From Candidatus Dojkabacteria bacterium (GTDB lineage: Bacteria > Patescibacteriota > Dojkabacteria > J137): a stretch of 64,000 nt of DNA. Every line of letters begins with the position of its first letter. The first letter of the stretch is position 1. A program made the translations under genes and the position numbers. The stretch covers positions 144,174 through 208,173 of the forward strand of contig JBDTVZ010000002.1 in assembly GCA_040006935.1 (NCBI GenBank). The letters run 5' to 3'. This document shows, piece after piece, positions 4,595-37,138 of the stretch. A model generated the notes under the pieces. That model was not told where the DNA came from, did no database searches, and saw nothing but the letters and a program-made list of their open reading frames with translations.

Positions 4595-4675
4595 GCATTC
4601 CAAGTTGAGAAGTTACAAACTTGTAAACGATATGAGACCTGAATGGAATAATGTTGAATACTCTCTGAAATATAT

Positions 4676-5230: not shown

Positions 5231-5334
5231 GTTTAAAAATAACTAATTAATAACCAGTATATACACAATTCAAACTCAAGTCTAGAGATCAATAATTAAT
5301 TAAAAACTCAAAATCTCTTTTAATTTTTTAATTG

Positions 5335-6396: not shown

Positions 6397-6622
6397 TTTA
6401 AAATATAAACGTAATACAAAGGGGTATTACGAGATAGTTTAAGGTTTATATTTAGACATATCAAGGAAATTTCTAAATACTAACCAATAATCAAGTCTCA
6501 ACTTCTAAATATTTAAAACTACAATTTGTTGATTGGAATTTGAATTTGTTTGGGATTTAGAATTCACTGCTTAGGATTTAAATATTAGATTTGATATAAT
6601 TCAAATAAATTATCATATCTTT

Positions 6623-7297: not shown

Positions 7298-7340
7298 CAA
7301 TTAAAAAAATAATCAGAAATATGAGATTCCCTTCTAAATT

Positions 7341-8003: not shown

Positions 8004-8096
8004 ATTGTTTGAATGATATTGAACTCAGTATAGATTATTTTAAATTGTTAGTAAACTCAATGGCTTTCATTCTCATTATTAATTAACTGACAATTA

Positions 8097-8180
8097 TATT
8101 TTAATTTGTCGTCAGCTGGGGTTTTGGGAAACCGAACTGGCTAACTTCCAGGTCCTTGGTTAGCAGCCATTCGTTTCTCC
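8097..8180 (+). ncRNA. Candidate small structured RNA: an extended imperfect hairpin of about 85 nt ending in a U-tract. It resembles SRP RNA domain IV only weakly (CCAGGUCC ... AGCAGCC).
   Basis: A GC-enriched island lies in a 340-bp gap between divergent genes. 5' GGGGTTTTGGGAAACCGAAC..GGCTAAC pairs with GTTAGC..GTTCG-TTTC-TCCAAAAC 3', followed by TTTTTT. No plus-strand ORF is upstream for which it would be a terminator. Confidence 0.3.
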
Positions 8181-8345
8181 AAAACTTTTTTGGTTACTTT
8201 TTTAGTTATAAAAAAGTGAAAAAGATTAAGAAACAAACTTTAGATTGTATAACTCCACTTTTGATCTCTAACACTGCAAAGTTATAGGGGGGGTAATGTC
8301 ACAGTTCCAGAACCTCACTATGACATGTTATGCTAAAATCAATTC

Positions 8346-9395: not shown

Positions 9396-9592
9396 AGTTC
9401 TAAGTGCACGCTTCCTCTTGATATCAATTCCTTTAGAATTTTATTAAATTTACGTTCATTCCATCCGAACTCTTTCACTGCTAATATCAGTAATCTAACT
9501 TTTTCGATACCTTGATGAGTTGTGATAAGGGAGTAAAGTTTTTCTTCATCAGTCAAAACTATTTCGTCTAATTCACCTTCAATTCCACTCAT
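9392..9592 (-). CDS. Small hypothetical protein, translationally coupled to gltX by an ATGA overlap.
   Basis: It is 66 aa. Its start overlaps the gltX stop by 4 nt. No motif was recognised. Confidence 0.35.
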   Translation of the reverse strand: MSGIEGELDEIVLTDEEKLYSLITTHQGIEKVRLLILAVKEFGWNERKFNKILKELISRGSVHLEL

Positions 9593-20741: not shown

Positions 20742-20936
20742 ATTTTAGACTAAATTAGCTAAGTTGAAATCTGTTAAACAGACTGCATTAATTATACAAC
20801 AAAAAAGCTAATTCTTAGTTGATAATTGGAGATTAATTGGGAATTGAAGTTTAAAGGTAGAAAGTTACATGGTTTAAAAGTTGAATGAAAACATTCCAAC
20901 CTTACAACATTTTAACCTTCCCACTAATTAAAATTC

Positions 20937-21392
20937 TTAATTTGCTTCTTTTGTTACTGGAGCAACGTTTATAATCTTATCTTCACTTTCTCTATATATT
21001 AGAGCTTTTGTTGAGAAAATAATCACAGTATCTCCTTCTTGTGCATCTGCATAGAAAGTAGCATTTTGAGATTTAACTTCCTCAAGATTAGCAATAGTCG
21101 CTATTGTTGGACTTTCGTTTGGAACAAGAATAATTTTCTTGATTTTATCTGTTAATGCATTATATTTTGCTGTGTCTTGCGCTGTCTGATCAGTACCTGA
21201 AGTTGATGCAAGTGGTTCCATTCTAGGTTTTATTACAAAAAGATACACACCACCACCTACAATAACTACTATTAAAATTAGTATTATAAATTTATATAGT
21301 AAATCGTTTTTTTTCTCTATTCTCTTCTGTTTAAAGGGATCTTGAAGCGTATTCATAATATTAAATGTTAAAATAATTAATCTGCTAACCAA
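20937..21392 (-). CDS. Small membrane-anchored hypothetical protein. Its start overlaps the stop region of the third giant gene, and it sits between the giant-gene array and secY.
   Basis: It is 151 aa with a single TM (FIILILIVVIVGGGVYLFVI) and a hydrophilic C-terminal domain. There is a 16-nt overlap with 21377..25951. Confidence 0.5.
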   Translation of the reverse strand: MVSRLIILTFNIMNTLQDPFKQKRIEKKNDLLYKFIILILIVVIVGGGVYLFVIKPRMEPLASTSGTDQTAQDTAKYNALTDKIKKIILVPNESPTIATIANLEEVKSQNATFYADAQEGDTVIIFSTKALIYRESEDKIINVAPVTKEAN

Positions 21393-24300
21393 GTATAGCA
21401 GTAGTACTTTCCTATCTCAACAGGTGTTGTGAGGTTAATTTTAAATGAACTAGAACTAATTTCAGATACGTTTATCTTTTCTACAGAACTAAGATCTGAA
21501 CAATCTGAAGTCTTAGTAGGTGCTGTATCAGACTGACCTATGATTCCTACACTTACGAAAGGTTGATATGGATATTGTATAGGAAAACTAATTGTTTTGG
21601 ACAAAAGAGGGTAAGTTCCATCGGATTGCATATAACCCCATCCACTTATTTGGAACTGGTTTGGTTGGTCCACTTGATTATCTTTATCAAAACGTATTCT
21701 AGATATAACCAAACCATTTAAACTTCTCCATTCTTGTGATACAGAATCTCGGAATTCCAAGGTTTTAGAAATATCATTTATTCTAAAACCAATTTCATCA
21801 GTTGTAGATCCAAAAAGGATTTTCCCTTCAGATGAAACTTTTATGTAATTTAATCCATTTTTACTTTCAATATCTTTATTGACTTGTAAATTAGCTCCAT
21901 TTTCATCTACTTGATCAACACCGATACCAACTTTTGTATCAGCTAAACTAAATACATTATCGCCTTTTTGTTCCCATAAAAGTGATTGTGTAATTTGATT
22001 ACTATCCGCCAGATTTGTCCACTCTCCTTCCTTATTTTTAAATTGAACTTTTCCTGCTTCGTTTAATTTAAATCCTGCCTCTCCATTTTCACCAAGATTT
22101 ATTTGTACTTTATTATTTATTCCATCGTTGTTTCTAGTTATCATTACGCTTATGAAAGATATTCCCTCACCAGTATGTGGCTCTTGGGCTATTCCTATAT
22201 TGGTTTCTCCATCTTCAGCTTTTTTACCAACTCCTTCAATATCACTTGCAGTTATTTTATCTCCAATTGAAATATCGCCTTTAACTTTTACGGGAACTTG
22301 CCCCACCATACTCATTAATTTCCAATTAGGATCGTTATTGTTTACATCTTCAACGCTTGTAATATTTCCTACAAAACCAGGCGAAGTACTTATTACTCCA
22401 ACGATTGCTTTATCTCCTTCTTTTGCTTTTAGAATACTTTTAGATTCTGTTTCATCTAACTTAACAATATCTCCCGCTTCAATTGAAGTATCGTTTGTAT
22501 GCATATACTCTGCGTAATCAGCACCTACGCTAAACCATCCTCCTTGTTGACTTGTATATGCTCTACCCGTAGCATCGAATCTAAATAATTTTCCATCTGG
22601 TTGACTTGCCGTTGCTGGACCTGTACCTGTTTGGTTCGCAATATAAAATATATCCTCAGCTTTTGTTTGACCTAAGTCCAAAATATCTATGTCTGTCCTT
22701 GTTGAGGAATATGGTGCAACCTGACCTCCATATGTATAAAATTTACCATTGTATATACCATAAGCTGGCCCTTGACGACCAGTTCCTCCTGCTGGTAAAG
22801 CTTGAATCCAACTAGCTGTTTGTATATTGTAATAATATGATGCATTTAATAAAACTCCCGCTCCTGCATATCCTCCCCATAAATAAACCTTATCCTGATA
22901 TGCAAACAAAGTGGGTCCTGCAACAACACCTGTTGAAGGACCAGCACTCCAAGTAGCAGCCTGGATATCATATATTTCGAAAAGTGCTGAAAACCCTGAG
23001 CCTGGGATTGTCCCTCCAAGAACGTACATTTTACCATTCAATATGGTAGACCCCATTCCATATCTTGCAGTGCCTCCAGTTGTTCCAGTTGTCCATGTAT
23101 TTGCTCCGAAATCAAATATACTCATTGTATTAGTTACTGTAGGACAGGCTCCAGCACTATTACATCCTCCCCATAAGTACCACTTACCATTATAAACAAC
23201 TGATGAAGATCCAGATCGAGCAGTTCCTCCAGTTGTTCCTGCTGACCATGTATTAGTTGCTATATTGTAAATTTCCATTGTATTTAAAATACTTGCGCAT
23301 GCTGCTACATCACATCCTCCCCAAATATAAATTTGGGCATTATACAATGCAGACATATGTTCATAGTGTGTTACGCTGCTACTAGCTCCTGTAGACCAAG
23401 TATTACTTGCAATATTATAAATATACATAGTCTTGTCTCCTCCAGTTGCATCTCCTCCATAAACATAGAATTTACCTTGATATATCTCACCAGTTGGTGC
23501 ATTTAAAGTAGACGTTTGTGTTGCTCCCACAGTCCATGCTCTTGTTGTGTATTGAGTATTCTCATTTGTTAAATAAACTAATCCTAAAGGTTTTCCTGTT
23601 ATAGTCAAGACATTACTAGTATCCAATTTTAAACGCTCCTCTGAACCAACATTAATGCTTAGTACAGTATCTCTGATGCCTAGATCATAAATATCAGTTG
23701 TGCTTAAGATATTACTTCCAGCACTATCCAATCCATCTACTTCAAATATTTTTCCATTATATAAAGCTGCTACCTGAGCGTATCTAGCAGTACCTCCTGC
23801 TGTCCCTGTACTCCATGTGCCTAATGCCAAACTATATATATCTACAGTATTAACTCCTGATGAGGTAAAACCATGTACACTCAACATATTTCCATTACTT
23901 ATAAACAAGGAACCATTTCTTCTTGCTGTACCTCCTGCCGTGCCAGTGCTCCATGTGGCTGTTGGAATATCGTAAATGTCTAAAGTATTTGTTACTGCAG
24001 CAATAAAACCCCCGTAGTTATACATTTTTCCATTGTATATCACCGACGTTTGAGACCTTCTAGCAGTTCCTCCTGTAGTTCCAGTAGTCCAACTATTTGC
24101 TCCTATATCGTAAATATCTACAGAGTTTAAGTTAGTTGAGTTATTAGCAGAACCACCCCATATATAAATCTTTCCATTGTAAATAACAGAACTCGCTTGA
24201 CACCTTGCAGTACCTCCAGATGCGCCCGTACTCCAACTATTATTTGCAACATCGTAAATATCTACTACTGTGGTTGTAGATGTTAAGGCTGAGTTTGTGC

Positions 24301-25951
24301 AGCCAGTAACATAGTACATTTTCCCGTTATAAGTTTGACCTGTATGTGCCAGTCTAGCTGTACCTCCTGCTGTTGCAGTAGCCCAAGTGTTTGTTAATAA
24401 ATCATAAACATTCATTGTATTAACAATGGTTGATAATGCCGTATTTGTCGCACCACCCCAAATGTATAATTTAGAATTGTAAACTAAACCGATAGAGTAC
24501 GCTCTTCCGGTCCCTCCTCCAGCACCTATGCTCCAACTTGCAGCAACATTTGAAGAGAGATTTTTATTAATATTCAATCCTCTAAGTATATTTATATTAT
24601 TATAGCCATAGGCATCTATTTGACTACCTGTGATTGAATTTATACTGAGACCTTGAGAGCTAGTGATATTGCCATTGCCATAATAAGTTCCATTGCTATC
24701 AATCCCTACTCTTAAAGCATTGTTAATAAAGATTTTATCAAATTGCTGAGCAATAGTTGCACCATCACCTCCTATCTTACTGGCGATTTGCTCTACAACG
24801 GTCTGGCCTGTAGTCCAGCTTACTGCCGGAGAAACAGAAAGTTGAGTTGAAGTAGGAACTCCATCAATACGTGCGTAAGTTGTACCATTTACTAAAACTA
24901 AATTACCTACATCAAAATTTGTTGTTGAAGATACTACTAGGTTTTTTGTCGTTGTCCCAGTTCCTGAGGTTGTTGTTGATCCATTGCCCACCGTCAAAAG
25001 ACTTCTAACATCTCCTTTAAAATTACTAAGTCCATCCGCAGTAAGATTTAAAGCAATTGTTAATCCTCCGTCAGTTTTTAAAGTATTAGCAGCAGACCTA
25101 TATAAAGTCGCATCTCCTAATAGTAAACCTCCTGTAGCGCCTGTTTGGCTTAAAGCAAGCTGACCCGCATTATTCAATACAAATTTATCTGTACCCGAAC
25201 TTTGTAATTGAAGAATATTCCCTGAACCTTGTTGATTTACTCTAATTGCACCTGTAGAGCTTGGCGTACTTTGTATTGTGGTTGGGCTCAATTGAACAAA
25301 TCCATCTGTTGATGCACCACTCAAAGTTTGAGCGCTGAAAACCGTTGGGACGCTCATTAACCCAGTACGTGTGAAAGTTTCTATTCCCCCTGGTGGTGAT
25401 GCTAAAGTTGTCCATGCACCACTCGGATCAAAAGTAATTTCTAAAAATAGATCTGTTCTATCAAAATTTACTCCTGTAACGGAATCGGCATCTCCATTAT
25501 CATCAAATAATTGACAAAGAGTAGAAGAAGTAACTGTTGAAGCCCAGGAATGGGTTCCAGATGCAGATGCAACACAAACAGAATTAATTCTTAAGTCGAA
25601 CCTTCCTGCACCTGTGCCTATTTCTACATTTGTAAATAACTCTTCAAATAAAAGATTATTTCCTGCAGTTGCTGTTCCACCGCTTACAACATTCCAAATT
25701 CTAACTCTAAAATCGCAAGTATCTGCTCCAGCCGACACACATGCTGGACTTCCAGTTGCAGGTGCGAGTCCCGTAGTCTTGTTTGTGATTCTACTTTGAA
25801 AGTTAATAGTATTATTTATAGTTGCATGAACCTGATGAGTTGAGCTAAAGATAAACATTATAAAAACCACAGATAACAGACGACAGACGACAGATATTAT
25901 TCTTCTGTGATCTGTCTTCCGTATTCTGTTTTCTATTAATTTATAATTCAT
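21377..25951 (-). CDS. Giant membrane-anchored surface protein, paralogue 3 (1524 aa). It has a conserved N-terminal module, two six-bladed Kelch-like beta-propellers and a conserved C-terminal module.
   Basis: The ORF is uninterrupted. There is an N-terminal TM helix. Twelve blades repeat W(S/T)TGTAGGTAR….YNGK(I/M)Y(I/V)WGG…(L/V)DIYD. A linker FGIRDTVLSINVG lies between the propellers. The C-terminal roughly 450 aa is colinear with the other two paralogues (…KLFRFDATGRAYTSQQGGWFSVGADYAEYMHT…GVISTSPGFVGNITSVED…). Confidence 0.85.
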   Translation of the reverse strand: MNYKLIENRIRKTDHRRIISVVCRLLSVVFIMFIFSSTHQVHATINNTINFQSRITNKTTGLAPATGSPACVSAGADTCDFRVRIWNVVSGGTATAGNNLLFEELFTNVEIGTGAGRFDLRINSVCVASASGTHSWASTVTSSTLCQLFDDNGDADSVTGVNFDRTDLFLEITFDPSGAWTTLASPPGGIETFTRTGLMSVPTVFSAQTLSGASTDGFVQLSPTTIQSTPSSTGAIRVNQQGSGNILQLQSSGTDKFVLNNAGQLALSQTGATGGLLLGDATLYRSAANTLKTDGGLTIALNLTADGLSNFKGDVRSLLTVGNGSTTTSGTGTTTKNLVVSSTTNFDVGNLVLVNGTTYARIDGVPTSTQLSVSPAVSWTTGQTVVEQIASKIGGDGATIAQQFDKIFINNALRVGIDSNGTYYGNGNITSSQGLSINSITGSQIDAYGYNNINILRGLNINKNLSSNVAASWSIGAGGGTGRAYSIGLVYNSKLYIWGGATNTALSTIVNTMNVYDLLTNTWATATAGGTARLAHTGQTYNGKMYYVTGCTNSALTSTTTVVDIYDVANNSWSTGASGGTARCQASSVIYNGKIYIWGGSANNSTNLNSVDIYDIGANSWTTGTTGGTARRSQTSVIYNGKMYNYGGFIAAVTNTLDIYDIPTATWSTGTAGGTARRNGSLFISNGNMLSVHGFTSSGVNTVDIYSLALGTWSTGTAGGTARYAQVAALYNGKIFEVDGLDSAGSNILSTTDIYDLGIRDTVLSINVGSEERLKLDTSNVLTITGKPLGLVYLTNENTQYTTRAWTVGATQTSTLNAPTGEIYQGKFYVYGGDATGGDKTMYIYNIASNTWSTGASSSVTHYEHMSALYNAQIYIWGGCDVAACASILNTMEIYNIATNTWSAGTTGGTARSGSSSVVYNGKWYLWGGCNSAGACPTVTNTMSIFDFGANTWTTGTTGGTARYGMGSTILNGKMYVLGGTIPGSGFSALFEIYDIQAATWSAGPSTGVVAGPTLFAYQDKVYLWGGYAGAGVLLNASYYYNIQTASWIQALPAGGTGRQGPAYGIYNGKFYTYGGQVAPYSSTRTDIDILDLGQTKAEDIFYIANQTGTGPATASQPDGKLFRFDATGRAYTSQQGGWFSVGADYAEYMHTNDTSIEAGDIVKLDETESKSILKAKEGDKAIVGVISTSPGFVGNITSVEDVNNNDPNWKLMSMVGQVPVKVKGDISIGDKITASDIEGVGKKAEDGETNIGIAQEPHTGEGISFISVMITRNNDGINNKVQINLGENGEAGFKLNEAGKVQFKNKEGEWTNLADSNQITQSLLWEQKGDNVFSLADTKVGIGVDQVDENGANLQVNKDIESKNGLNYIKVSSEGKILFGSTTDEIGFRINDISKTLEFRDSVSQEWRSLNGLVISRIRFDKDNQVDQPNQFQISGWGYMQSDGTYPLLSKTISFPIQYPYQPFVSVGIIGQSDTAPTKTSDCSDLSSVEKINVSEISSSSFKINLTTPVEIGKYYCYTWLAD

Positions 25952-25956
25952 AATTT

Positions 25957-28900
25957 CTAATTACCTAGAGCTCTCCAAGTGTAACAGTAATACTTACTCC
26001 CCAAGGAGGGCTGATCGGTTCTTATATTTAAATTAAATTTAGTTGTGTCTATAGAATAAGGTGTTATTGTGACAATAGACTCATCAAATATACAACTACT
26101 CAAATTTGCTGGCTCTGTTGTTGAAGATCCAGAAATATCTGTAATTACAACAGGAATACTTCCATAGTTCTTTCCAAACCCTATTGATTTCACTAAGGAT
26201 GTAGTATTATCTCCTTTAATATATCCCCAACCGCTCACTTGTTCAACGTTTTTAATTTCAGTATTAGACCCATCAGGATTAACTTTAGAATTAGATATAA
26301 CTAATCCAGATAACTTTTTCCATTCTTGAGTTATAGAGTCTTTAAATTCTAAGGAATTATCATTAGAATTTAATCTAAATCCAATATCTGAAGAATTGAA
26401 AGTTATACTTCCCTCGCTTGCAGATATTTTTACATATTTTAAACCATCTTTAATTTCAATATCTCCTGCTATCTGTAACTTACTTCCATCCAGATTCTCT
26501 TCTGGTACTCCAATACTTGTTACTCCATTGTTATTATCATATATATTATCTCCAATTTTTTTCCAAATTACACTAGTATCCACACTAATCTGCTGATCAA
26601 TATTTTTCCAATCTTCTTCTTTATCTTTATATTGCAATTTACCTTCATTGCTTAGTCTGAAACCAGCCTCACCTTCTGTTCCTAAGTTTATTTGAACTTT
26701 ATTATTTATTCCCGAATTATTTCTAGTTATTAATACACTTATTCCTCCTATACTTTCTCCATCAAATGATTCTTGAGCTATTCCAATATTATCTTCTCCC
26801 TCCTCTACTCTCATACCAATCCCTGCCTGGCTACTGATTCCAATTCTATCTCCTACTTTTATAGGACCATTTTCCCTGCTTACTTTCACTGGAACTTGTC
26901 CTACCATGCTTAATAACTTCATATCGGCTCTTTGTCTGTTTATATCTTCCACTGAGGTTATGTTTCCTACAAAACCAGGATCTGTACTTATCACACCTAT
27001 TACCTCATCTCCTTTGCTTGCTTTTGATATACTTTTTCCGTCCGACAAATCTAATTTAACAATATCACCTGCTTGTATATTTGTGTCCGAAGTGTGCATA
27101 TACTCAGCATAGTCAGCTCCAACGCTAAACCAACCTCCCTGAGAACTTGTATAAGCTCTTCCAGTCGCATCAAATCTAAACAATTTAGAATCTCCACCTC
27201 CAACTCCTTGTTGATTTGCAATGTAAAAGATATCTTCTGTTTTTGAGATTCCAAAGTCATAAATATCCATTGTATTAAGTTGTGTTCCACCACCTGTATT
27301 CAGTCCCCCCCATCCATAAAGCTTAGCATTCCACATTATTGTAAATTGACCATACCTCGCAGTACCCCCTGCTGTTCCAACACTCCAAACATTTCTTTCT
27401 ATGTCATAAACATCCATTGCTGTCGATGCTGCAGTTGTAAATCCAGCCCAAGAAATCAATTTCCCATTATATTCGACAAGTTGTCCTAGGTATCTTGCAT
27501 TCCCTCCTGCTGTTCCTGTTGTCCATGAGTTTGTTACCAGATCATAAATATCCACTGTATTTGTTGCGGCTGCAATAAAACCTCCAAAATTATACATTCT
27601 GTTTTTATATAAGACTGCACTATGCCATCTTCTAGCTGTTCCCCCTGCCGTTCCTGTACTCCAGCTATTTGCAACTGGATCATAAATATCTACTGTATTT
27701 ATATTTACAGTACCATTAATTCCTCCCCATATATAAATTTTGGCATTCCAGAGTACAGCAGATGCCCCACCTCTTGCGGTTCCCCCTCCTGTCCCTGTAC
27801 TCCATGTATCTGTTGCTATATCGTAAATATCTACAGCATTAGTTACAGATGAAGATGCTATGTTTAGTGTTCCCATAATAATATATATTTTCCCATCGTA
27901 TATAGTTGCAGATGCAGCCCACCTTCCAGTGCCTCCAGCTGTTCCTGTGCTCCAGGTACTAGTTTTAAGGTCAAAAATATCTAAAGTATTATAATAAGCT
28001 GTACAGCCCGTGGTTGTACAACCTCCCCAAATATACATCTTGTCATTGTACTCTACCGTTACTCCATAGTTTCTAGCTGTTCCTCCCGTTGTTCCTGTTG
28101 TCCATCCAGGAGCAGTATATTGACTTCCTTCTTTTGATATATACTGTAAGCCTAATGATTTTGAAGAGAGAGTTATTACATTATTTTGGTCAATATTTAA
28201 CCTTTGCTGATCGCCTACATTCACTTGCAAAACTGTATCTTTAATTCCAAAGTCATAAATATCCATTGTATTTATTGCTCCTGATGCGTCTCCTCCCCAG
28301 TTATACCACTGGTTATTAAACACAGCACTTGCTGGATGTATTCTCGCCGTACCACCTGCTGTTCCTGTACTCCAACTATCTAATGCAAAATCATAAATAC
28401 TTAATGAATTTAGTGCAGAACCATTAGTTCCTCCCCATCCATACATTTTATTATCAAATACCGTAGCTACATGATCTTGTCTTGCGGCACCTCCAGCTGT
28501 TCCTGTTGCCCATGAATTAGCTGAGAAATCATAAATATCCATTGAATTTACTACACCACCATTATTTCCTGCCCAGACATACATTTTGTCATTATAGACA
28601 ATAGCTGTATGTTGAAACCTTGCAATTCCACCCGTTGTCCCTGTTGTCCATGAATTAGCTGCGAAATCATAAATATCCATTGTGTTTGAAACACTGCCGG
28701 TAGATCCACCCCAGATATACCATTTATTATTATAAACAACTCCACTAGCTGCATCTTTCGCAGTACCTCCTGTTGCCCCTGTACTCCAGGTACCAAGTTT
28801 TAAATCATAAATATCCACAGTATTTATTCTCGTTCCTCCACTATTAAAACCACCCCATGCATACATTTTATCGTTAAAAACTGTTGCTACATGGTATCTT

Positions 28901-30537
28901 CTAGCAGTACCTCCTGCTGTTCCTGTTGTCCAAATTTTTGATGAGAAGTTATAAATATCTAAAGAATTGATCACGGATCCTGTAGAACCTCCCCATACAT
29001 AAAGATTTCCGTTATAGGTAACTGCTGTATGTGAGTGCCTTGCTACACCGCCAGTTGTTCCTGTACTCCAGCTTCCAGCTACATTAGAATACTCTGCTTT
29101 ATTTATAATTAAACCTTTGGTTGTATTTAAACCTACAGTGGCCGAACTCCCCATATTTAAACTATTTGTTCCAGTATCAATAGCAAAAGGATTTGTTTTT
29201 CCTCCACCAATAGATTGGTCTCCATAGGTGGTAGAATTTGTACTAGAACCTACTCGCAATCCATTGTTTGTAAACATTCTGTCGTAAAGTAAAGCTACAT
29301 TTGTTCCATTTCCTCCTATGTCTGGAGCTGTATATTCAACTACTGTTTGACCATTAGACCAGCTAACCGCTGGGTTCACTGTGAGTGCTGTACTACTTTC
29401 TACTTTAGTTATAATTGCATAAGTAGAACCATTTATAAGAACTAGATTGCCTACATCAAAATTAGTTGTACTTGAAACTACTAGAGTAGTTACACTGCTA
29501 CCCGTTCCAGTTGCAGTTGTGCTTCCATTTGAAACAGTCGTAATTGCTTTTAGGTTTCCTTTAAATTCTGAATAACCTAGCACTGAGAATTCTGTACTAT
29601 TAGTCCCATCTACAATTAAGTTATCATCAGTTTTTAATACATTAGTTGTTGAATTATATAAATTCACATCTCCACCAATTACTAAACCTCCTGTAGCCCC
29701 AGTTTGAGCAAGAGCCAATTGGCCTGCATTACTCAAAACGAATTTATCGGAACCCGCTTGTTGTAATTGAATAACGTTGCCACTTCCTGTTTGATTAACT
29801 CTGATTGCTCCTGAAGAGCTGGAAGTGCTTTGAACTGCACTAGGATTAAGTTGAACAAATCCTGTTTCATCGAGTCCATTAATTGTTTTAGTTGCATAAG
29901 CTGAAGGAACGGAAGTTAAATTAGTCCTTGTAAATATTTCTATTCCTCCTGGTGGAGAAGCTAGAGTAGTCCATGCACCGCTAGGATCAAAAGTTACTTC
30001 CAAATATAGATCGGTCCTTGCAAAATCAATCCCTGTAGTTGTATCGGTATCTGCATTATCATCAAATAAATTGCAAACAGTTGCAGATGCACCTGTAGTC
30101 CCCCACTGATGTGTTGAGCTGGAAGTAGCTCCACACACTGAGTTTATAGATAAAGTAAAGATTCCATTTCCATCACCTAATTCAACATTATTAAATAATT
30201 CTTCATACATTAAGTTGTTACCCGCAGTTGCTGTTCCTCCACTTACTAAGTTCCAAATCCTCACTCTAAAATCACAAGTATCTGCACCAGAAACTACACA
30301 AGTAGGTGGGGTACCAGAAGTAATATTTAAAAGTGTTGATTTCACAATCATCTTTGTTTGGAAATTAATTACATTATTAATTGCCGCATGGATCTGATTT
30401 GTTGAGATTAAGTTTAGAGTTATGATTGTTAACAACACAAAGATCATAGATAACAGATGACAGATGACAGACCTTATCAATCTATTATCTGCAATCTGTG
30501 ACTTATTTTTTATTCTTTCATTTCTTAATTCTTTCAT
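25957..30537 (-). CDS. Giant membrane-anchored surface protein, paralogue 2 (1526 aa), with the same architecture as 21377..25951.
   Basis: The ORF is uninterrupted and lies 5 nt from its neighbour. It has the same N-terminal (CDFRVRIWN..SGGTATAGNNL) and C-terminal (GWFSVGADYAEYMHT) modules and 12 Kelch-like blades. Confidence 0.85.
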   Translation of the reverse strand: MKELRNERIKNKSQIADNRLIRSVICHLLSMIFVLLTIITLNLISTNQIHAAINNVINFQTKMIVKSTLLNITSGTPPTCVVSGADTCDFRVRIWNLVSGGTATAGNNLMYEELFNNVELGDGNGIFTLSINSVCGATSSSTHQWGTTGASATVCNLFDDNADTDTTTGIDFARTDLYLEVTFDPSGAWTTLASPPGGIEIFTRTNLTSVPSAYATKTINGLDETGFVQLNPSAVQSTSSSSGAIRVNQTGSGNVIQLQQAGSDKFVLSNAGQLALAQTGATGGLVIGGDVNLYNSTTNVLKTDDNLIVDGTNSTEFSVLGYSEFKGNLKAITTVSNGSTTATGTGSSVTTLVVSSTTNFDVGNLVLINGSTYAIITKVESSTALTVNPAVSWSNGQTVVEYTAPDIGGNGTNVALLYDRMFTNNGLRVGSSTNSTTYGDQSIGGGKTNPFAIDTGTNSLNMGSSATVGLNTTKGLIINKAEYSNVAGSWSTGTTGGVARHSHTAVTYNGNLYVWGGSTGSVINSLDIYNFSSKIWTTGTAGGTARRYHVATVFNDKMYAWGGFNSGGTRINTVDIYDLKLGTWSTGATGGTAKDAASGVVYNNKWYIWGGSTGSVSNTMDIYDFAANSWTTGTTGGIARFQHTAIVYNDKMYVWAGNNGGVVNSMDIYDFSANSWATGTAGGAARQDHVATVFDNKMYGWGGTNGSALNSLSIYDFALDSWSTGTAGGTARIHPASAVFNNQWYNWGGDASGAINTMDIYDFGIKDTVLQVNVGDQQRLNIDQNNVITLSSKSLGLQYISKEGSQYTAPGWTTGTTGGTARNYGVTVEYNDKMYIWGGCTTTGCTAYYNTLDIFDLKTSTWSTGTAGGTGRWAASATIYDGKIYIIMGTLNIASSSVTNAVDIYDIATDTWSTGTGGGTARGGASAVLWNAKIYIWGGINGTVNINTVDIYDPVANSWSTGTAGGTARRWHSAVLYKNRMYNFGGFIAAATNTVDIYDLVTNSWTTGTAGGNARYLGQLVEYNGKLISWAGFTTAASTAMDVYDIERNVWSVGTAGGTARYGQFTIMWNAKLYGWGGLNTGGGTQLNTMDIYDFGISKTEDIFYIANQQGVGGGDSKLFRFDATGRAYTSSQGGWFSVGADYAEYMHTSDTNIQAGDIVKLDLSDGKSISKASKGDEVIGVISTDPGFVGNITSVEDINRQRADMKLLSMVGQVPVKVSRENGPIKVGDRIGISSQAGIGMRVEEGEDNIGIAQESFDGESIGGISVLITRNNSGINNKVQINLGTEGEAGFRLSNEGKLQYKDKEEDWKNIDQQISVDTSVIWKKIGDNIYDNNNGVTSIGVPEENLDGSKLQIAGDIEIKDGLKYVKISASEGSITFNSSDIGFRLNSNDNSLEFKDSITQEWKKLSGLVISNSKVNPDGSNTEIKNVEQVSGWGYIKGDNTTSLVKSIGFGKNYGSIPVVITDISGSSTTEPANLSSCIFDESIVTITPYSIDTTKFNLNIRTDQPSLGSKYYCYTWRALGN

Positions 30538-30544
30538 TTCTTAA
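30513..30544. repeat. Tandem 16-nt duplication (ttctttcatttcttaa x2) spanning the stop of giant gene 1 and the start of giant gene 2.
   Basis: Seen directly. On the minus strand it reads TAAGAAATGAAAGAA twice: the first copy carries stop plus ATG, and the second is in-frame coding (LRNER). Confidence 0.6.
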
Positions 30545-33500
30545 TTTGCTATAGCTATCCAGTTAAAACAGATGTATTTATTTGGAATATCTGCTTCATT
30601 TGTTGTAATAGACATATCAAACTTATTATCTGACTTAATATTTACTTTACTTACAATATTTTGATCCAACACGCTATCACATTGAGTCGGATTATTTGGT
30701 TCATTTTCTGAATAACCAATAATATTAGAAAGTACTGCAATCTTTTCTCTAACTGTACCTGGAATAGTTATTTCTTTAGACAAGCTTGTTGTTGAGCCAT
30801 CTCCTTTTAGAAAACCCCATCCACTTATCTGATAACTATTTTGTACTTGCAGCACATTTTCATTATTTACTTGCATCCTACTTATAACCATTCCAGATAA
30901 ACTTCTCCAATCATTTGCACCAGCATCACTGTATTCAATTCCTCCCGTAGTTTCGTTTAGTCTTATACTCAAAGGACTGGTTGATTCTCCTATTTTAATT
31001 ACACCATTAGCAGTTATTTTCACAAACTTTAAACCATCCATTACATCTATTCCTTGAGATATCTGGAGTTTACTTCCACTTAAATTTTCTTCATCTACAC
31101 CAATACTTGTTACCCCCGAACTATTATTAAAAATATTGTCCCCTATTTTTTCCCAAATCATACTATTATCGACCTCAACACTTTGTGCGATATCTTTCCA
31201 GTTTCCTGATGTATCCTTAAATTGTAAATTTCCAGAATTATTTAATCTAAATCCTGCTTCCCCGTTTTCTCCAAGGCTAATTTGAACTTTATTATTAATT
31301 CCCTCATTATTTCTAGTTATTAACACACTTATTTTTCCTATAATATTTCCTGAATAATTTTCTTGGGCTAAACCGATATTGCTATCTCCAGGGTCCGCTT
31401 TCATTCCCACTCCAGGTACGGATGAAGATGTTATTGGATCTCCAATCTTGATTTCTCCATTTTCAGTACTTACTTTCACAGGTACTTGTCCTACCATGCT
31501 AAGTAATTTCATATCAGTTCGATTATTATTAATATCTTCTATATTCGTTATGTTTCCAACAAATCCTGGATCAGTACTAATCACACCTATAACATCATTG
31601 TCATTTGCTTTAGAAGTTTTTATAAGGCTTTTTGCATCGACACTATCTAGTTTTACAATATCTCCTGGTTCAATAGTTGCATCTTTTACATGCATATATT
31701 CTGCATAGTCAGCACCTACGCTAAACCAACCTCCTTGTTTGCTTGTATACGCTCTTCCCGCAGCATCAAATCTAAATAGTTTTCCATTATCTGGTCCACC
31801 ATTTTGTTGATTAGTTATATAAAATACATCTTCTGATTTAGAAGCCCCTATATCAAAAATATCTAATGTATTCAGAACTGTAGTTCCTGCAGAATTTAAT
31901 CCACTCCAATTGTAAATCTTTCCACTATAAACTGTTGATACATGCTCATAACGGGCTGTTCCTCCTGCTAGGCCTATACTCCAAACTGCTCTCTCTGTAT
32001 CAAATATCTCCACAGTATTTACTGCTGCACTTGTAAATCCATAGACAGCATAGAATTTACCATTGTAGGGTACAAATCCATGTAATTCTCTAACAGTAGA
32101 TGCTGAAGTTCCAACTGCCCATGTATTTGTTTGGAAATCATAAATATCAACAGTGTTAGTTACTGCAGCGATAAAACCTCCAAAATTATACATTTTCCCA
32201 TTATAAAGAACTGCTGTTTGAAACCTTCTAGCAGTTCCTCCTGCTGCTCCTGTACTCCAGCTATTTGCATTTATGTCATAGATATCTAAAGAGTTAAGAT
32301 TTGATCCTGTATAACCAGCCCAAATATATATTTTCCCATTATATAAGACAGAAGAAGCAGCGCAACGACCCGTACCTCCAGAGGTTCCTGTACTCCAACT
32401 ATCTGTAACTATGTCATATATATCAACTACAGTTGTGTTTGCTGTTAACAAATTGTTTGTACAACCCGTTACAAAGTAAATTTTCCCATTATAAACCTGT
32501 GCTTGGTGAAAATCCCTTGCTGTTCCCCCTGCGGTTCCTGTTGTCCATGTATTTGTTAGGAAATCATAAATATCCATTGTATTCAATTTAGTTGTTAAAG
32601 CTGAACTGGAAGATCCTCCCCATAGATACCATTTGTTGTTATATTGGGCTCCTGCTGCTCCAGTTCTAGCTGTTCCTCCTGTAGCACCTGTAGTCCAAGC
32701 TTGTGAAGTATATTGTGCCGCCTCTTTTAATGGATAAACTAAGCCAAGAGCCTGCCCTGTTACTGTTAAAATATTATTTGTATCCAATTTTAGTTTTTCT
32801 TGGCTTCCTACATTTACTTGAAGAACAGTACTGTTATCGCCTAAATCATAAATATCCATTGTATTTATGTGGGAACCAGTATTTCCTGCCCAATTGTAAA
32901 TTTTCCCATCGTATAATACAGCAGAATGTTGACTCCTTGCTGTCCCTCCCGTAACGCCTGTTGTCCAAGCATCTGTAGCAAAAGAGTAAATATCTACTGT
33001 GTTTATAAGCGATCCTGTTGTTCCTGCCCAACTATATATTTTCCCACCATAAACAGCTGAAGTATGTAAAGCTCTAGCAGTTCCTCCTGCTGTTCCTGTA
33101 CTCCAGGTATCTGTAGCAATATTATATATATCTAATGTATTTATTGCTGTTCCTCCTGAATTTAAGCCAGCCCAATTATAAATTTTCACATTATATAAAT
33201 TTGATGTACTTTGATATCTAGCCGTACCTCCTGCTGTTCCTGTTGTCCAACTATTTGCTACAAAATCATAAATATCTAATGTATTTATTGCTGTTCCTCC
33301 TGAGTTCAATCCTCCCCAGCTATACATCTTTCCACTGTAAACTATTGCTGAATGCTGACTTCTAGCAGTACCTCCTGCTGTTCCAGTTGTCCATGCATCT
33401 GTTGCAATATCATAAATGTCTACTGTATTTAAAGCTGTTCCTCCAGAGTTTAACCCTCCCCAGCTATAAATTTTTCCATTGTATACAACCGAAGTATGCT

Positions 33501-36489
33501 GCTGTCTTGCAGTTCCCCCTGCTGTTCCAGTAGACCATGTGTTAGTTGCAATATCGTAAATATCTAAAGTATTTATTACAGAACCTGTTGTCCCACCCCA
33601 ACTATATATTTTTCCATTATATAAAATGGAAGTGTGCCTAGACCTAGCAGTTCCTCCTGCTTTACCAGTAGACCAAGAAGCTGTTACATTTACTGCATCA
33701 GTTGTATTGATTATTAATCCGTTAGTTGTAGTGATATTTAACTGATCTCCAGTAGAAGTTATTGTTGATCCTTCAATTCTCAGTCCTCTTGGCGCAACGA
33801 TATTTCTATCTCCAAAGCTAGTGCCATTAGCATCCCCTCCTGCTCTTAAATAATTATAGATATTTGCTGAATCGAATTGTTGATTTAGATTTGCTGTTTG
33901 TCCATCTCCACCTACAGTTGGAGCTGTATACTCTACTACTGTTTGACCATTGGACCAAGAAAGAGCTGGAGTTACTGTCATTTGAGTTGCTGAGTCTATG
34001 CTATCTATTCTTGCATAGGTCGTTCCATTAAGAAATACTAGATTCCCAATGTCAAAATTAGTTGTTGAGGCCACAACAAGGTTTCTAGTTGATGAACCTG
34101 TTCCCGTTGCGGTTGTTGAACCATTTGCTATTGTAACTAATGACCTCATATTTCCTGCGAAGTTAGAAAGACCATTAAATGTACTATCCAATGCTATTTC
34201 TAAAGAATAATTTGAAGTTAGAACCCCACTGGCACTACGATAAATAAGTCCGCCGCCGATTGAAATACCACCACTAACCGTCTGGGTGAATTTAACAAGA
34301 AACGAATCGTTTGAACCTGCCGTAGATTTAACATCTGTCCCTGAGGTAAAGTCAAAGTCCAGGTTAGAACTTTGAAATGCTCCTACAGCATAGATATCGG
34401 TTCCATTAGCATAGATACCTGCAGGATTATCCAGTCCAGCAGCTCCTATTGAAACAGTCCAAGCATAGTTACCGTTAGGATAATATTTTGAAAAATATAC
34501 ATCATTACTACCTACGCTTACCTTGTTATCAAAACCCGTTGAAGTACCATCAAAATCTGTAGCGGCTCCTACACCAGAAGCACCAGTACCTATATATAAA
34601 CTACCGCCTGAATCAATACTTAAAGAATTTGTAGAGTCTGACGCTTCACTTCCAAAAGTCCTCGCCCAGCCATAGCTTGCATCGGAATTGTACTTCACTA
34701 AAAATCCATCTGCACTTCCACCTATTACTGATTTTGTATCTGTTCCTGCTGTGCCATCAAAATCTGTTGTATTTCCAAATGATCCTGCAGCGTAAACTGA
34801 AGTAGTGCTAGCAACTAAAGCATTGACTTGGTCCCCAACTCCACCAGTAGTATGCCCAGCAAAAACTCTTGTCCATGCGTAGACACCAGCTGTTGTATAT
34901 TTTGAGATATATGCACTGTTGGCAGTTCCACTACTAAAACTTGATTGACTATCTGTTCCTGCAGTAGTGTCAAAATCTATACTTGCACCTACAAACCCAC
35001 CACCAAAATAAAAGAACCCATCTGTTGTTACTGCAATACCTTTCCCAATATCTGTATTTCCTGAACCTCCAAATGCTCCTCCAAATAGGTACGCACCAGT
35101 TGTATCATATTTAGCAAAATAAGCATCATCCCCACTACTTGTATGATTATCTGTTCCTGCACCAGGATTAAAATCCACGGTTGTACCATTATATCTACCA
35201 GTAATGTAAGAGTTACCACTTGAGTCTACAGCAATTGCAGAACACTGTTCTGTGGTTGCCGCTGTTGAACCCCCAAAATGTTTTCCCCATTGATAAGTTC
35301 CACTGGAATTATATTTAATAATGAAATTGTCGGTTCCTCCTGCACTTACATGACTATCTGTACCTGCGTTTCCATTAAAATCTTGTGTTCCACTAAAAGC
35401 TCCACAGTAATATACGTCTGTATCAGTTGCGGCAACACTCAATACTTGTTGTGTACCACTAGTTGTTGATATTACTCTTGACCATTGATAAGCACCACTT
35501 GCGTTGTATTTAGTAAGATATAAACCAGTTCCGGAACTTGTAAAAGGATCTGTACCTCCTGTTCCATCTAAGTCGATACTCGTACCAGTAAAAGTTCCAA
35601 CCTGATACACTCCAGTTCCATCTGGTGATACATATACAGATTGACCTATATCTGTGCCCGATCCCCCTACTACTCTAGAGAAACCGTACCCTGGAAGTGA
35701 ATCAGATAAACCTAATTGACCAGTATTATTTACAGTAAGTACATTGGCCCCTGCAGTTTGTAATTGCAGAAGAGTTCCTGTTCCTGTCTGATTAACTCTA
35801 ATTGCTCCATTTGTGCTTGTTGTATTTTGAATTGCCGATGGATTTAACTGTACAAAGTCTGATGAAGAGAATCCATTTAAGGTTTGAGCCACAAACGCGC
35901 TTGGGGCTGTTCGCAAATTAATTCTTCCAAATGTTTCAGCATTTCCCGAAGACCCTGTTAAACTTGTCCATGTACCATCTACATCCCATGTTAATTCTAA
36001 CCAAAGATCAGATCTTGCAAAGTTAATACCCGTTGTTGAATCCGCATCTCCATTATCATCAAAGAGATTACATACTGTTGCAGATGCACCTGTAGTACCC
36101 CATTGATGAGTAGCGCTTGTAGTAGCCCCACAAACAGAATTTATTGTTAGATTTAAAATTCCATTAGTATCTCCCAGTTCTATATTTGTGAATAATTCTT
36201 CATACATCAAATTATTTCCGGCTGTGGCGGTTCCACCAGTTTGTTGATTCCAGATTCTGATTCTGAAATCACAAGTATCTGCTGACCCAGTAATTACACA
36301 AGCTGGCATTGCGTTCTGTGGATTTATCCCACTTGATTTCAATGTTAATTTTGTTTGGAAATTTATAGTGTTTTTTATGGCGGCGCTAACTTTAAAATTT
36401 CCCACAAAAAAAGTGATAAATATAAAAATGAAAGCTATAGCCGTAGAAGTCTTTATAGTATTGAGTTTTAGACAGTTAGTCCACCTCAT
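30541..36489 (-). CDS. Giant membrane-anchored surface protein, paralogue 1 (1982 aa). It has the same N- and C-terminal modules and Kelch-like propellers, plus an additional block of about 450 aa of SBBP-type beta-propeller repeats.
   Basis: The ORF is uninterrupted. The extra region between the N-module and the first Kelch propeller contains about 8 repeats of the type GG…D.G..IAVD(S/T)(S/D)GN.Y..G.F.G…DFD…AGTD, which is SBBP-like. It is the first gene after the rplO terminator. Confidence 0.85.
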   Translation of the reverse strand: MRWTNCLKLNTIKTSTAIAFIFIFITFFVGNFKVSAAIKNTINFQTKLTLKSSGINPQNAMPACVITGSADTCDFRIRIWNQQTGGTATAGNNLMYEELFTNIELGDTNGILNLTINSVCGATTSATHQWGTTGASATVCNLFDDNGDADSTTGINFARSDLWLELTWDVDGTWTSLTGSSGNAETFGRINLRTAPSAFVAQTLNGFSSSDFVQLNPSAIQNTTSTNGAIRVNQTGTGTLLQLQTAGANVLTVNNTGQLGLSDSLPGYGFSRVVGGSGTDIGQSVYVSPDGTGVYQVGTFTGTSIDLDGTGGTDPFTSSGTGLYLTKYNASGAYQWSRVISTTSGTQQVLSVAATDTDVYYCGAFSGTQDFNGNAGTDSHVSAGGTDNFIIKYNSSGTYQWGKHFGGSTAATTEQCSAIAVDSSGNSYITGRYNGTTVDFNPGAGTDNHTSSGDDAYFAKYDTTGAYLFGGAFGGSGNTDIGKGIAVTTDGFFYFGGGFVGASIDFDTTAGTDSQSSFSSGTANSAYISKYTTAGVYAWTRVFAGHTTGGVGDQVNALVASTTSVYAAGSFGNTTDFDGTAGTDTKSVIGGSADGFLVKYNSDASYGWARTFGSEASDSTNSLSIDSGGSLYIGTGASGVGAATDFDGTSTGFDNKVSVGSNDVYFSKYYPNGNYAWTVSIGAAGLDNPAGIYANGTDIYAVGAFQSSNLDFDFTSGTDVKSTAGSNDSFLVKFTQTVSGGISIGGGLIYRSASGVLTSNYSLEIALDSTFNGLSNFAGNMRSLVTIANGSTTATGTGSSTRNLVVASTTNFDIGNLVFLNGTTYARIDSIDSATQMTVTPALSWSNGQTVVEYTAPTVGGDGQTANLNQQFDSANIYNYLRAGGDANGTSFGDRNIVAPRGLRIEGSTITSTGDQLNITTTNGLIINTTDAVNVTASWSTGKAGGTARSRHTSILYNGKIYSWGGTTGSVINTLDIYDIATNTWSTGTAGGTARQQHTSVVYNGKIYSWGGLNSGGTALNTVDIYDIATDAWTTGTAGGTARSQHSAIVYSGKMYSWGGLNSGGTAINTLDIYDFVANSWTTGTAGGTARYQSTSNLYNVKIYNWAGLNSGGTAINTLDIYNIATDTWSTGTAGGTARALHTSAVYGGKIYSWAGTTGSLINTVDIYSFATDAWTTGVTGGTARSQHSAVLYDGKIYNWAGNTGSHINTMDIYDLGDNSTVLQVNVGSQEKLKLDTNNILTVTGQALGLVYPLKEAAQYTSQAWTTGATGGTARTGAAGAQYNNKWYLWGGSSSSALTTKLNTMDIYDFLTNTWTTGTAGGTARDFHQAQVYNGKIYFVTGCTNNLLTANTTVVDIYDIVTDSWSTGTSGGTGRCAASSVLYNGKIYIWAGYTGSNLNSLDIYDINANSWSTGAAGGTARRFQTAVLYNGKMYNFGGFIAAVTNTVDIYDFQTNTWAVGTSASTVRELHGFVPYNGKFYAVYGFTSAAVNTVEIFDTERAVWSIGLAGGTARYEHVSTVYSGKIYNWSGLNSAGTTVLNTLDIFDIGASKSEDVFYITNQQNGGPDNGKLFRFDAAGRAYTSKQGGWFSVGADYAEYMHVKDATIEPGDIVKLDSVDAKSLIKTSKANDNDVIGVISTDPGFVGNITNIEDINNNRTDMKLLSMVGQVPVKVSTENGEIKIGDPITSSSVPGVGMKADPGDSNIGLAQENYSGNIIGKISVLITRNNEGINNKVQISLGENGEAGFRLNNSGNLQFKDTSGNWKDIAQSVEVDNSMIWEKIGDNIFNNSSGVTSIGVDEENLSGSKLQISQGIDVMDGLKFVKITANGVIKIGESTSPLSIRLNETTGGIEYSDAGANDWRSLSGMVISRMQVNNENVLQVQNSYQISGWGFLKGDGSTTSLSKEITIPGTVREKIAVLSNIIGYSENEPNNPTQCDSVLDQNIVSKVNIKSDNKFDMSITTNEADIPNKYICFNWIAIAN

Positions 36490-36603
36490 TAAATTTTAGG
36501 TAAAAACATTAAGTGCACAATACTCAGTTTATCAGAAGAATAAGGGGATGTGAAGTTTTAGGACTAAATTTTATTACACTTTTTTAGAGACAAGAAATTG
36601 GAT

Positions 36604-36632
36604 AAAAAAAGTCTCTTTTGGAGACTTTTAAA
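36604..36632 (-). terminator. Intrinsic terminator downstream of rplO (minus strand): stem AGTCTC/GAGACT, loop CAAAA, then TTTTTT.
   Basis: The minus-strand reading is aaaagtctccaaaagagactttttt. It sits between rplO (ending at 36650) and the giant-gene start (36489). Confidence 0.6.
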
Positions 36633-36649
36633 ATCGAAGGATTATTATT

Positions 36650-37138
36650 TTACTCTACAGTTCCTCCTGCTTTTTCTATTGCAGATTTTGCAGTTTTTGA
36701 AGTTGCAACTCCTTTTAGATTTATTTTTATATCAATTTCTTTATCAAAAAGAACTTTTACCACTAATTCTTTATGAAATTTGGGACTTATTAAACCATAT
36801 TCAACTAAATTTACAATACTAACTTCTGGATTTTTTGATTCCTTGACTGCATCTGCAAGTAAGCTTAATTTTACAGGAGAATTTCTTTGCATAGACATGA
36901 AAGTTCCTCTACCAGTAAAACCTTTTCCTTTAGATGGAGTTCCTTTGTAAATTGGTAATCTTCTGTTGATTGGATTTTGTCCCCCTTCAAATCCTGGTCT
37001 TGGTTGCTTGTGACCACCTCTTGCAGTCTGACCTTTTCCACCTCTTCCACTTGTATGTCCACCTACCCCACTACCTATCCCTCTTCCGATTTTCTTTTTA
37101 GCTTGTATTGTTTTTGGTGAAGGTAAATTATTTAACAT
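36650..37138 (-). CDS. rplO: 50S ribosomal protein L15.
   Basis: Glycine-rich N-terminus GRGIGSGVGGHTSGRGGKGQTARGG, and its position after S5 and L18. Confidence 0.85.
   Translation of the reverse strand: MLNNLPSPKTIQAKKKIGRGIGSGVGGHTSGRGGKGQTARGGHKQPRPGFEGGQNPINRRLPIYKGTPSKGKGFTGRGTFMSMQRNSPVKLSLLADAVKESKNPEVSIVNLVEYGLISPKFHKELVVKVLFDKEIDIKINLKGVATSKTAKSAIEKAGGTVE

Follow-up and report, generated by a model that had tools for sequence, protein, structure and literature searches.

The 64,000-nucleotide stretch of contig JBDTVZ010000002.1 analyzed here (the window), from Candidatus Dojkabacteria bacterium, carries three giant paralogous genes, hereafter A, B and C. We found that the C-terminal module (C-module) of each product begins with a Peptidase_G2-type intramolecular chaperone domain, which is related to that of phage tail spikes and retains the cleavage motif, and that it ends in a predicted lectin-like tip. 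Together with a signal-peptide-like N-terminus, a conserved N-module and Kelch propellers, these domains make up a new architecture put together from known domain kinds. We consider A, B and C to be, with fair probability, Sec-exported, phage-tail-fibre-like surface proteins or adhesins of Candidatus Dojkabacteria. The parts follow each other in the order signal peptide, N-module, linker motifs and mid-domain, two Kelch propellers, G2 domain, stalk and tip; in C, an SBBP block precedes the mid-domain by coordinates. The three proteins align end to end with 50-51% pairwise identity and a mean column identity of 62%.

30541-36489, minus strand: gene C, open reading frame (ORF) of 1982 amino acids
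25957-30537, minus strand: gene B, ORF of 1526 amino acids
21377-25951, minus strand: gene A, ORF of 1524 amino acids

The C-module begins with a Peptidase_G2 chaperone domain

A previous description of these genes, made from the letters of the DNA (the sequence-only reading), had found no motif in the C-module that could be placed in a known family. This was not borne out, since the first third of the isolated C-module of A (last 426 amino acids) matched PF11962 (Peptidase_G2, intramolecular chaperone autoproteolytic cleavage domain) with 45.3 bits against a cut-off of 25 (E 9.1e-12). The precomputed Pfam annotation of homologue P0001 also carries PF11962. Whole-length Pfam and NCBIfam scans of A, B and C did not report this family, only Kelch and SBBP matches and sub-threshold mutarotase matches, and this probably accounts for a public annotation limited to 'kelch repeat-containing'. 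The C-module also matched the PHROG family 'pre-neck appendage protein', and its best PDB sequence matches were the chaperone domain D4 of the tailspike Dpo31 (28nb_A, E 2.3e-5) and the C-terminal fragment of phi29 gp12 (3gqh_A). The sequence-only reading had been right to reject peptidase S74, as PF13884 did not match the C-module with a threshold as loose as E <= 10, and it had missed both the functionally analogous Peptidase_G2/phi29 gp12 autochaperone and the lectin-like C-terminal tip.

22118-22657, minus strand: Peptidase_G2-type intramolecular-chaperone (beta-tulip) domain of A, residues 1099-1278
26707-27237, minus strand: G2-type domain of B, equivalent to that of A
31297-31833, minus strand: G2-type domain of C, equivalent to that of A
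22505-22519, minus strand: DYAEY motif of A, D1145-Y1149, with predicted autocleavage between A1144 and D1145
27100-27114, minus strand: DYAEY motif of B, starting at Asp1142
31696-31710, minus strand: DYAEY motif of C, starting at Asp1594

With a profile built from 24 sequences, the DYAEY of the GADYAEY motif aligned with residues 1-5 (DFAEY, in the context DFAEYF) of the 163-residue 3gqh_A chain (E 8.8e-7), and the D, A and E of the motif were invariant in all 24 aligned sequences. The first residue of 3gqh_A marks what we take to be the gp12 cleavage site between Ser691 and Asp692. Reportedly, gp12 cleaves itself between these two residues after trimerisation, its C-terminal autochaperone is set free in a further step that depends on ATP, and the mechanism has been proposed as one that adhesins of bacteria could also employ. 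By comparison with gp12, A, B and C may be cleaved before the Asp of DYAEY.

An AlphaFold2 (AF2) model of the C-module contained two confident domains, at residues 46-175 (predicted local distance difference test, pLDDT, of about 90) and 335-426 (about 93). Residues 46-175 matched 3gqh_A in Foldseek with E 8.6e-6, a template modelling (TM) score of 0.61 and probability 1.0, as well as 3suc with E 1.7e-6. The G2 domain also matched trimeric beta-tulip decoration proteins, including the base of phi29 gp8.5, and in BFVD a 'preneck appendage protein barrel' (E 3e-11) and tail-fibre proteins. Proteins with the beta-tulip fold, among them phi29 gp12 and phage decoration proteins, typically form trimers (PMC7602432).

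The position of the domain differs from that in phages. The distance from the motif to the stop codon was 380, 385 and 389 amino acids in A, B and C, respectively, whereas 78 complete ORFs with the motif on viral contigs had a median of 153 (range 129-232). The extreme C-terminal placement typical of G2 domains is not found in A, B and C, in which a Kelch propeller precedes the domain.

This internal position is also what would be expected if A, B and C were monomeric multi-domain exoproteins that bind or modify glycans, with a G2-like domain that does not cleave and a DYAEY motif kept for folding instead of catalysis. We hold this unlikely, albeit deserving serious attention. The propellers that precede the domain are not obviously a trimeric fold, and weak Kelch matches point to mutarotase/NanM families, although these mutarotase matches lay far under the cut-off (42-70 bits versus 243). 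Phage decoration proteins, which were among the fold matches, use beta-tulip domains for binding without cleavage (PMC7602432); the nearest sequence relatives, however, were tail-spike chaperones and not decoration proteins. The invariance of D, A and E among 24 diverse sequences, in alignment with the N-terminus of the gp12 fragment, likewise argues against a domain that does not cleave.

The C-module ends in a stalk and a predicted lectin-like tip

Beyond the G2 domain, each protein continues with a beta-rich stalk of 155 amino acids and a C-terminal beta-sandwich.

21653-22117, minus strand: post-chaperone stalk of A, residues 1279-1433, with two G-F-R-L-N...W..L repeats (from the alignment)
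26242-26706, minus strand: stalk of B, equivalent to that of A
30832-31296, minus strand: stalk of C, equivalent to that of A
21380-21652, minus strand: predicted H-type-lectin-like beta-sandwich of A, residues 1434-1524, with a conserved Cys pair
25960-26241, minus strand: predicted lectin-like tip of B, equivalent to that of A
30544-30831, minus strand: predicted lectin-like tip of C, equivalent to that of A

The stalk was modelled as a monomer with low pLDDT and gave a weak match to the spike gp20 of cyanophage Pam3 (E 0.018). Foldseek matched the tip to 2ccv, 4q56, 2ce6 and 3wmp with TM scores (target) of 0.62-0.63, probability 1.0 and E of about 0.01. These matches include the Helix pomatia and H. 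aspersa agglutinins and SLL-2, and the tip could also be superposed on the distal domains of the LKA1 gp49 and phi297 gp61 tailspikes and of R-pyocin fibres. The Pfam family H_lectin (PF09458) stayed below threshold on the C-module (10.3 bits versus 24, E 0.81), and Gp53-like_C was another sub-threshold match. From the predicted fold, the last 90 or so residues appear to form an H-type-lectin-like sandwich.

Signal peptides, N-module and mid-domain

As read from the sequence, all three proteins have a signal-peptide-like N-terminus with a basic n-region, about 20 hydrophobic residues and a cleavage-type end. The gene starts set by the Prokaryotic Genome Annotation Pipeline (PGAP) lie further downstream, at Met32 in A and at residue 29 in C, and cut most of the hydrophobic core (25858-25951 and 36405-36489), so the longer ORFs look more plausible.

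25823-25951, minus strand: putative signal peptide of A, residues 1-43, cleaved between VHA and T
30385-30537, minus strand: putative signal peptide of B, cleaved between IHA and A
36382-36489, minus strand: putative signal peptide of C, cleaved between VSA and A
25148-25822, minus strand: N-module of A, residues 44-268, with four conserved Cys
29707-30384, minus strand: N-module of B, equivalent to that of A
35704-36381, minus strand: N-module of C, equivalent to that of A
24788-24940, minus strand: mid-domain of A, residues 338-388 (LVVSSTTNFD...GQTVVEQ)
29332-29484, minus strand: mid-domain of B, equivalent to that of A
33928-34080, minus strand: mid-domain of C, equivalent to that of A

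The N-module, which is of disulfide type, is 57-66% identical between the copies (46-82% per window of 50 residues). No relative of it was found in Pfam, PHROG or the PDB, where the best match, netrin-4 (E 0.37), was taken as chance. Its AF2 model was poor (pLDDT 50.6), and it is rare, with eight hits in the homologue search. The mid-domain is 68-70% identical between the copies, and AF2 placed beta strands in it at low-to-moderate confidence. A protein bearing a K1-lyase_C tailspike domain has the same linker motif, LYRSAANTLKTD.

All motifs that the sequence-only reading had quoted for the N-module, the mid-domain (LVVSSTTNFDVGNLV...GQTVVE) and the C-module were found in the alignment. Its modular picture also stood, with the N-module, the mid-domain and the start of the C-module kept, more variable propellers, and an SBBP block present only in C. 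Its view that both termini are conserved was correct for the N-module and for the first 200 or so residues of the C-module (54-82% identity per window of 50 residues) and incorrect for the last 220 or so, which have diverged like the propellers (mostly 26-48% identity, with B and C reaching up to 62% in one window).

Kelch propellers and the SBBP insert

Whole-protein Pfam scans returned PF24681 with E 2e-57 to 7.6e-84 and PF01344 with E 1.9e-44 to 2.5e-56. Each protein contains 6 + 6 units of the form W-x-T-G-x-x-GGTAR...Y-x-W-G-G...DIYD, 44-51 amino acids long, and a conserved linker of 46 amino acids joins the two six-unit blocks. The profiles and the unit counts confirm that the blades are of Kelch type, as had been proposed, and the repeat pattern indicates that A, B and C each hold two six-bladed propellers.

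23678-24535, minus strand: predicted Kelch propeller 1 of A, residues 473-758, six blades, position-2 type by phylogeny
22667-23536, minus strand: predicted Kelch propeller 2 of A, residues 806-1095, six blades, divergent, grouping with the position-1 propellers of homologues
28243-29070, minus strand: predicted Kelch propeller 1 of B, residues 490-765
27247-28104, minus strand: predicted Kelch propeller 2 of B, residues 812-1097
32836-33675, minus strand: predicted Kelch propeller 1 of C, residues 939-1218
31843-32697, minus strand: predicted Kelch propeller 2 of C, residues 1265-1549
34255-35688, minus strand: SBBP-like insert found only in C, residues about 268-745, seven repeats with anchors 65-70 amino acids apart

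SBBP (PF06739) matched three stretches of the insert alone with 23.4 bits against a cut-off of 20.5; on the whole C protein the match was borderline (20.3 bits). The 1982-residue copy was indeed the only one with these repeats, as the sequence-only reading had stated, although there are seven of them, 65-70 amino acids long, and not about eight. At the DNA level the insert corresponds to repeat family D16.

An old mosaic among the propellers

A neighbour-joining tree with 200 bootstraps was built from 15 propellers, taken from the window and from five homologues. Propeller 1 of A was a sister of propeller 2 of C in 183 of the 200 bootstraps, and it joined the position-2 propellers of B, C, P0001, P0033, P0034 and P0178 in 179, whereas the positional groupings A1+B1+C1 and A2+B2+C2 were each recovered in none. 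Pairwise identities gave the same picture: propeller 1 of A was nearest to C2 (61%), followed by the propeller of P0001 that adjoins the C-module (53%) and by B2 (52%), and its blades A1.1-A1.4 matched C2.1-C2.4 at 54-76% identity. Propeller 2 of A, which the tree placed among the position-1 propellers, was 37-43% identical to all other propellers compared. Since A1 falls in the position-2 clade and A2 among position 1, the order of the propellers in A appears to be swapped, or the propellers replaced, relative to the family.

The copies are therefore not uniformly diverged, and a mosaic is present, as the sequence-only reading had expected. The SBBP block would be an insertion in C. In propeller 1 of C, Tandem Repeats Finder detected an array with a period of 144 nucleotides and 77% matches, and blades 1-5 are 63-75% identical among themselves.

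The same reading had described the blades as near-identical direct repeats in DNA that could feed recombination or gene conversion today. Neither statement held. The DNA repeat families of the blades are 60-75% identical, with 74-77% matches in the best tandem arrays, while the longest exact shared word is 21-27 nucleotides between genes and 15-32 within them. Identity at third codon positions is 0.26-0.62 along the full alignment. Among identical four-fold codons of the propellers, the fraction of agreeing third positions is 0.36-0.54, versus 0.34 expected from base composition, so that synonymous sites are close to saturated. Between A, B and C, no stretch of DNA exceeded about 79% identity, and none bore a signature of recent conversion. 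The tract that reaches this value lies in the N-modules of B and C (residues 115-164 of A), where the two are 82% identical in amino acids and 79% in nucleotides, against 54-60% amino acid identity to A.

It is very unlikely, on these grounds, that the locus is a cassette for diversifying the exposed propellers, with recombination or gene conversion continuing between blade repeats that are almost identical. The swapped propeller order in A, the partly homogenised blades of C propeller 1, the B/C tract at 79% nucleotide identity and the breaking of public assemblies inside these genes would fit such a cassette; the longest exact DNA match of 32 nucleotides, the 60-77% identity of blade DNA, the near-saturation of synonymous sites in every propeller pair and the lack of any tract with a recent-conversion signature speak against it. 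Recent gene conversion as such was ruled out by the low DNA identity and the near-saturated synonymous sites. The latter also indicate that the shuffling events are ancient, and all the mosaic events are accordingly read as old from the synonymous-site evidence.

Relatives and distribution

The alignment used in the representative search contained about 110 Kelch columns, and as a consequence the best 150 hits were mostly Kelch proteins; full-length members and proteins that have just the chaperone domain were nevertheless recovered. The complete C-module was found in about nine clusters at 50% identity, and all four that carry organism names are from Dojkabacteria. A profile of stalk and tip retrieved two further proteins in 5.8 billion, one of which is named Dojkabacteria. 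The architecture is rare and apparently confined largely to this group.

Among the matches listed, there were also many giant proteins (1.5-5.3 thousand amino acids) in which the motif lies mostly 350-1700 amino acids from the stop, some with two motifs; the three that carry an organism name are MFZ5365021.1 (Patescibacteria), MSR87243.1 and MDD5055304.1 (Peribacteria). Giant proteins of this type from the Candidate Phyla Radiation (CPR) carry the chaperone-type domain at 150-236 bits, beside Kelch, FG-GAP/VCBS or tailspike-like modules. They share an internal GADYAEY(F/W) domain with A, B and C, but are without the N-module, stalk and tip of the window family. The window family appears to be one case of a broader, undescribed tendency of CPR bacteria to internalise the phage G2 chaperone domain. 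Literature searches on Dojkabacteria and kelch, and on giant, kelch or tail-fibre proteins of Patescibacteria, found nothing relevant.

As a separate observation, a subgroup from the representative search, P0141, P0165, P0167, P0174 and P0176 (1.1-1.7 thousand amino acids), contains two copies of the motif in the variant form G(S)YDFAEMF, 260-275 amino acids apart, which we read as putative tandem G2-like domains within one chain.

Proposed function and comparison with known systems

In the reading that we favour, A, B and C would be exported, after which the G2 domain, like its counterpart in phage tail spikes, would start the assembly of an oligomer, probably a trimer, at the C-terminal side. 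The domain might then cut the chain before Asp1145 in A, Asp1142 in B and Asp1594 in C. The conserved N-module would anchor all three paralogues to a common partner on the cell surface, and the divergent propellers and lectin tips would give each its own specificity for a glycan or host surface. Such paralogue-specific binding could serve the attachment of an ultra-small, probably host-dependent cell. Their diversity would stem from old duplication and module shuffling (the order swap in A, and the blade amplification and SBBP insertion in C) and not from ongoing gene conversion. The conservation of the N-module and the chaperone next to variable propellers and tips agrees with this proposal, and the Cys pairs and signal-peptide-like N-termini are extracellular features.

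The comparison with phi29 gp12 (PF11962; PDB 3GQH, 3SUC) shows both the likeness and its bounds. The family profile, the D-x-A-E at residue 1 of the fragment and the fold are the same. The domain of the window proteins is, however, internal, with 380-389 amino acids after the motif, whereas the gp12 fragment has 163 amino acids; the former is preceded by Kelch propellers and the latter by a trimeric beta-helix. Moreover, gp12 is a virion part assembled in the cytoplasm, while the window proteins are encoded on the chromosome and predicted to be Sec-exported. Domain D4 of the tailspike Dpo31 (28nb, 28lx), the best PDB sequence match, has in common with them a GSDYAEYF motif and the strands ...VGQ.xVxV...GD...; in Dpo31 and other depolymerase or tail-fibre chaperones the phage domain is terminal and stands in another protein context. 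The predicted tip resembles in fold the H-type lectins (2CCV, 3WMP), LKA1 gp49, phi297 gp61 and R-pyocin, with insignificant sequence similarity, and phage and pyocin fibres carry their lectin-like domain at the distal tip, as do A, B and C. Peptidase_S74 (endosialidase, T5 pb1, MYRF), which is a different family, is an analogous C-terminal, trimerising and self-cleaving fibre chaperone that has reportedly also been co-opted by cellular proteins (PMC3742443, PMC4690869).

Several points weigh against the proposal of surface fibres or adhesins. We infer trimerisation and cleavage by analogy; adhesion is deduced from the domain types, the role of the N-module from its conservation, and the lectin assignment from fold similarity (H_lectin E 0.81). 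A Kelch propeller directly before the G2 domain is unlike the trimeric beta-helix of phage spikes, and the 380-389 amino acids past the motif, compared with the phage median of 153, show that this is not a simple disposable terminal chaperone. A protein that underwent both cleavage and release would be left without its lectin tip. ATP, which the phi29 chaperone reportedly requires for its release, is not available outside the cell, and the proteins showed no cell-wall anchor motif. For an internal G2 domain there may thus be cleavage without release, as no extracellular ATP is available, or no cleavage at all.

CPR/Patescibacteria are tiny, many of them live attached to hosts, and very little has been characterised of the machinery on their surface. 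In A, B and C, an assembly domain of phage tail-spike type that keeps its cleavage motif intact is combined with a predicted lectin-like tip, which offers a handle on the folding, oligomerisation and binding of such proteins. The G2 domain was internal in none of the 78 examined phage ORFs; its place in A, B and C prompts one to ask what role autoproteolysis would play outside the cell.

Genomic setting

The three genes are closely packed, with gaps of 3 nucleotides between the stop of C and the start of B and of 5 nucleotides between B and A. From Met32 on, A is identical to NCBI MEP7103700.1 (exact substring), and C from residue 29 on is identical to MEP7103702.1 except for the start codon; both entries lie on a 299-kb contig and are annotated as 'MAG: kelch repeat-containing protein [Candidatus Dojkabacteria bacterium]'. 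The G+C content of about 33% fits a CPR/Patescibacteria source.

36650-37138, minus strand: rplO, upstream flank of the array
20937-21356, minus strand: protein of 139 amino acids between gene A and secY, single-pass membrane protein with one predicted N-terminal helix
19242-20741, minus strand: secY, downstream flank of the array

The genes rplO and secY are a near-universally neighbouring pair that adjoins in most bacteria. In the window, the array of about 15 kb and the gene for the small membrane protein, which had no significant Pfam match, fill the whole rplO-secY interval (19242-37138). Upstream, beyond rplO, lie the S10/spc ribosomal genes (rpsE, rplR, rplF) and tuf, and downstream, beyond secY, recO and pheT. 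The arrangement on the secY side recurs in two further Dojkabacteria assemblies, in which the 3' end of a giant gene is followed by a homologue of the membrane protein (140-141 amino acids) and then by secY: JBDSRX010000040.1 (L003; homologue at 2229-2654), a short contig that ends there, and JBLGEO010000021.1 (L102; homologue at 770-1192), in which the order runs on past secY into recO and pheT. In three Dojkabacteria genomes, then, a giant gene of this kind stands immediately upstream of the small gene and secY, and in the window the array splits the rplO-secY pair. In a more distant lineage the giant gene is located upstream of yebC-ruvCAB.

These surroundings bear on whether A, B and C could be receptor-binding proteins (tail fibres) of a prophage, a tailocin or another phage-derived particle, which we regard as extremely improbable. 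The chaperone domain, the lectin tip and the linker motifs are typical of phage fibres, and the chaperone part was detected on at least 77 viral contigs. Yet no viral contig or GenBank phage matched beyond the first 173 residues of the C-module, the distance from motif to stop is outside the viral range, and all three proteins have signal-peptide-like N-termini. No phage structural, integrase or lysis genes were found in the window, where the neighbours encode ribosomal proteins, SecY, RecO and PheT, and the synteny with secY is kept in three genomes. The prophage reading, in particular, was discarded because of the genomic neighbourhood.

A more specific form of the surface-fibre proposal, which we offer as speculative and rather improbable, is that these are CPR-specific exported 'cellular tail fibres'. 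Their G2 autochaperone would have been internalised and would cut the chain outside the cell, where ATP for release is lacking, the lectin-tipped fragment of 380 amino acids staying attached non-covalently. Such a junction, cut but still held together and in principle comparable to the SEA or GAIN autoproteolytic domains, could be a breakaway or regulated link in the attachment of an episymbiont to its host, and the conserved placement between rplO and secY would couple expression to the core translation and secretion operon.

No additional paralogues were found elsewhere in the window, and an Rfam scan of it gave a single tRNA and nothing at the locus. Just past the rplO stop, at about 36604-36629 on the minus strand, we noted by eye a hairpin with a T-run (AAAGTCTC-CAAAA-GAGACTTT-TTTT). 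It looks like an intrinsic terminator, although a scan for consensus terminators did not flag it, and the array may thus have its own promoter. In the segment 36650-37734, rpsE (S5) is directly followed by rplO (L15), with no ORF for rpmD (L30) between them; L30 is reported to be absent from many CPR genomes, and the S5-L15 arrangement fits this. A perfect direct duplication of 16 nucleotides in 2.2 copies (30512-30546; TAAGAAATGAAAGAAT on the coding strand) spans the stop of C and the start of B.

In public data, contigs (L001, L003, L081, L101, L102) repeatedly start or stop within a gene of this family. The Kelch repeats seem to interrupt assembly, and metagenome-assembled genomes therefore probably under-report its copy number and architecture. 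In L001, about 6 kb (3641-10000) upstream of a gene that encodes only the N-module (P0022, 263 amino acids) are nearly without long ORFs and may represent an rRNA operon.

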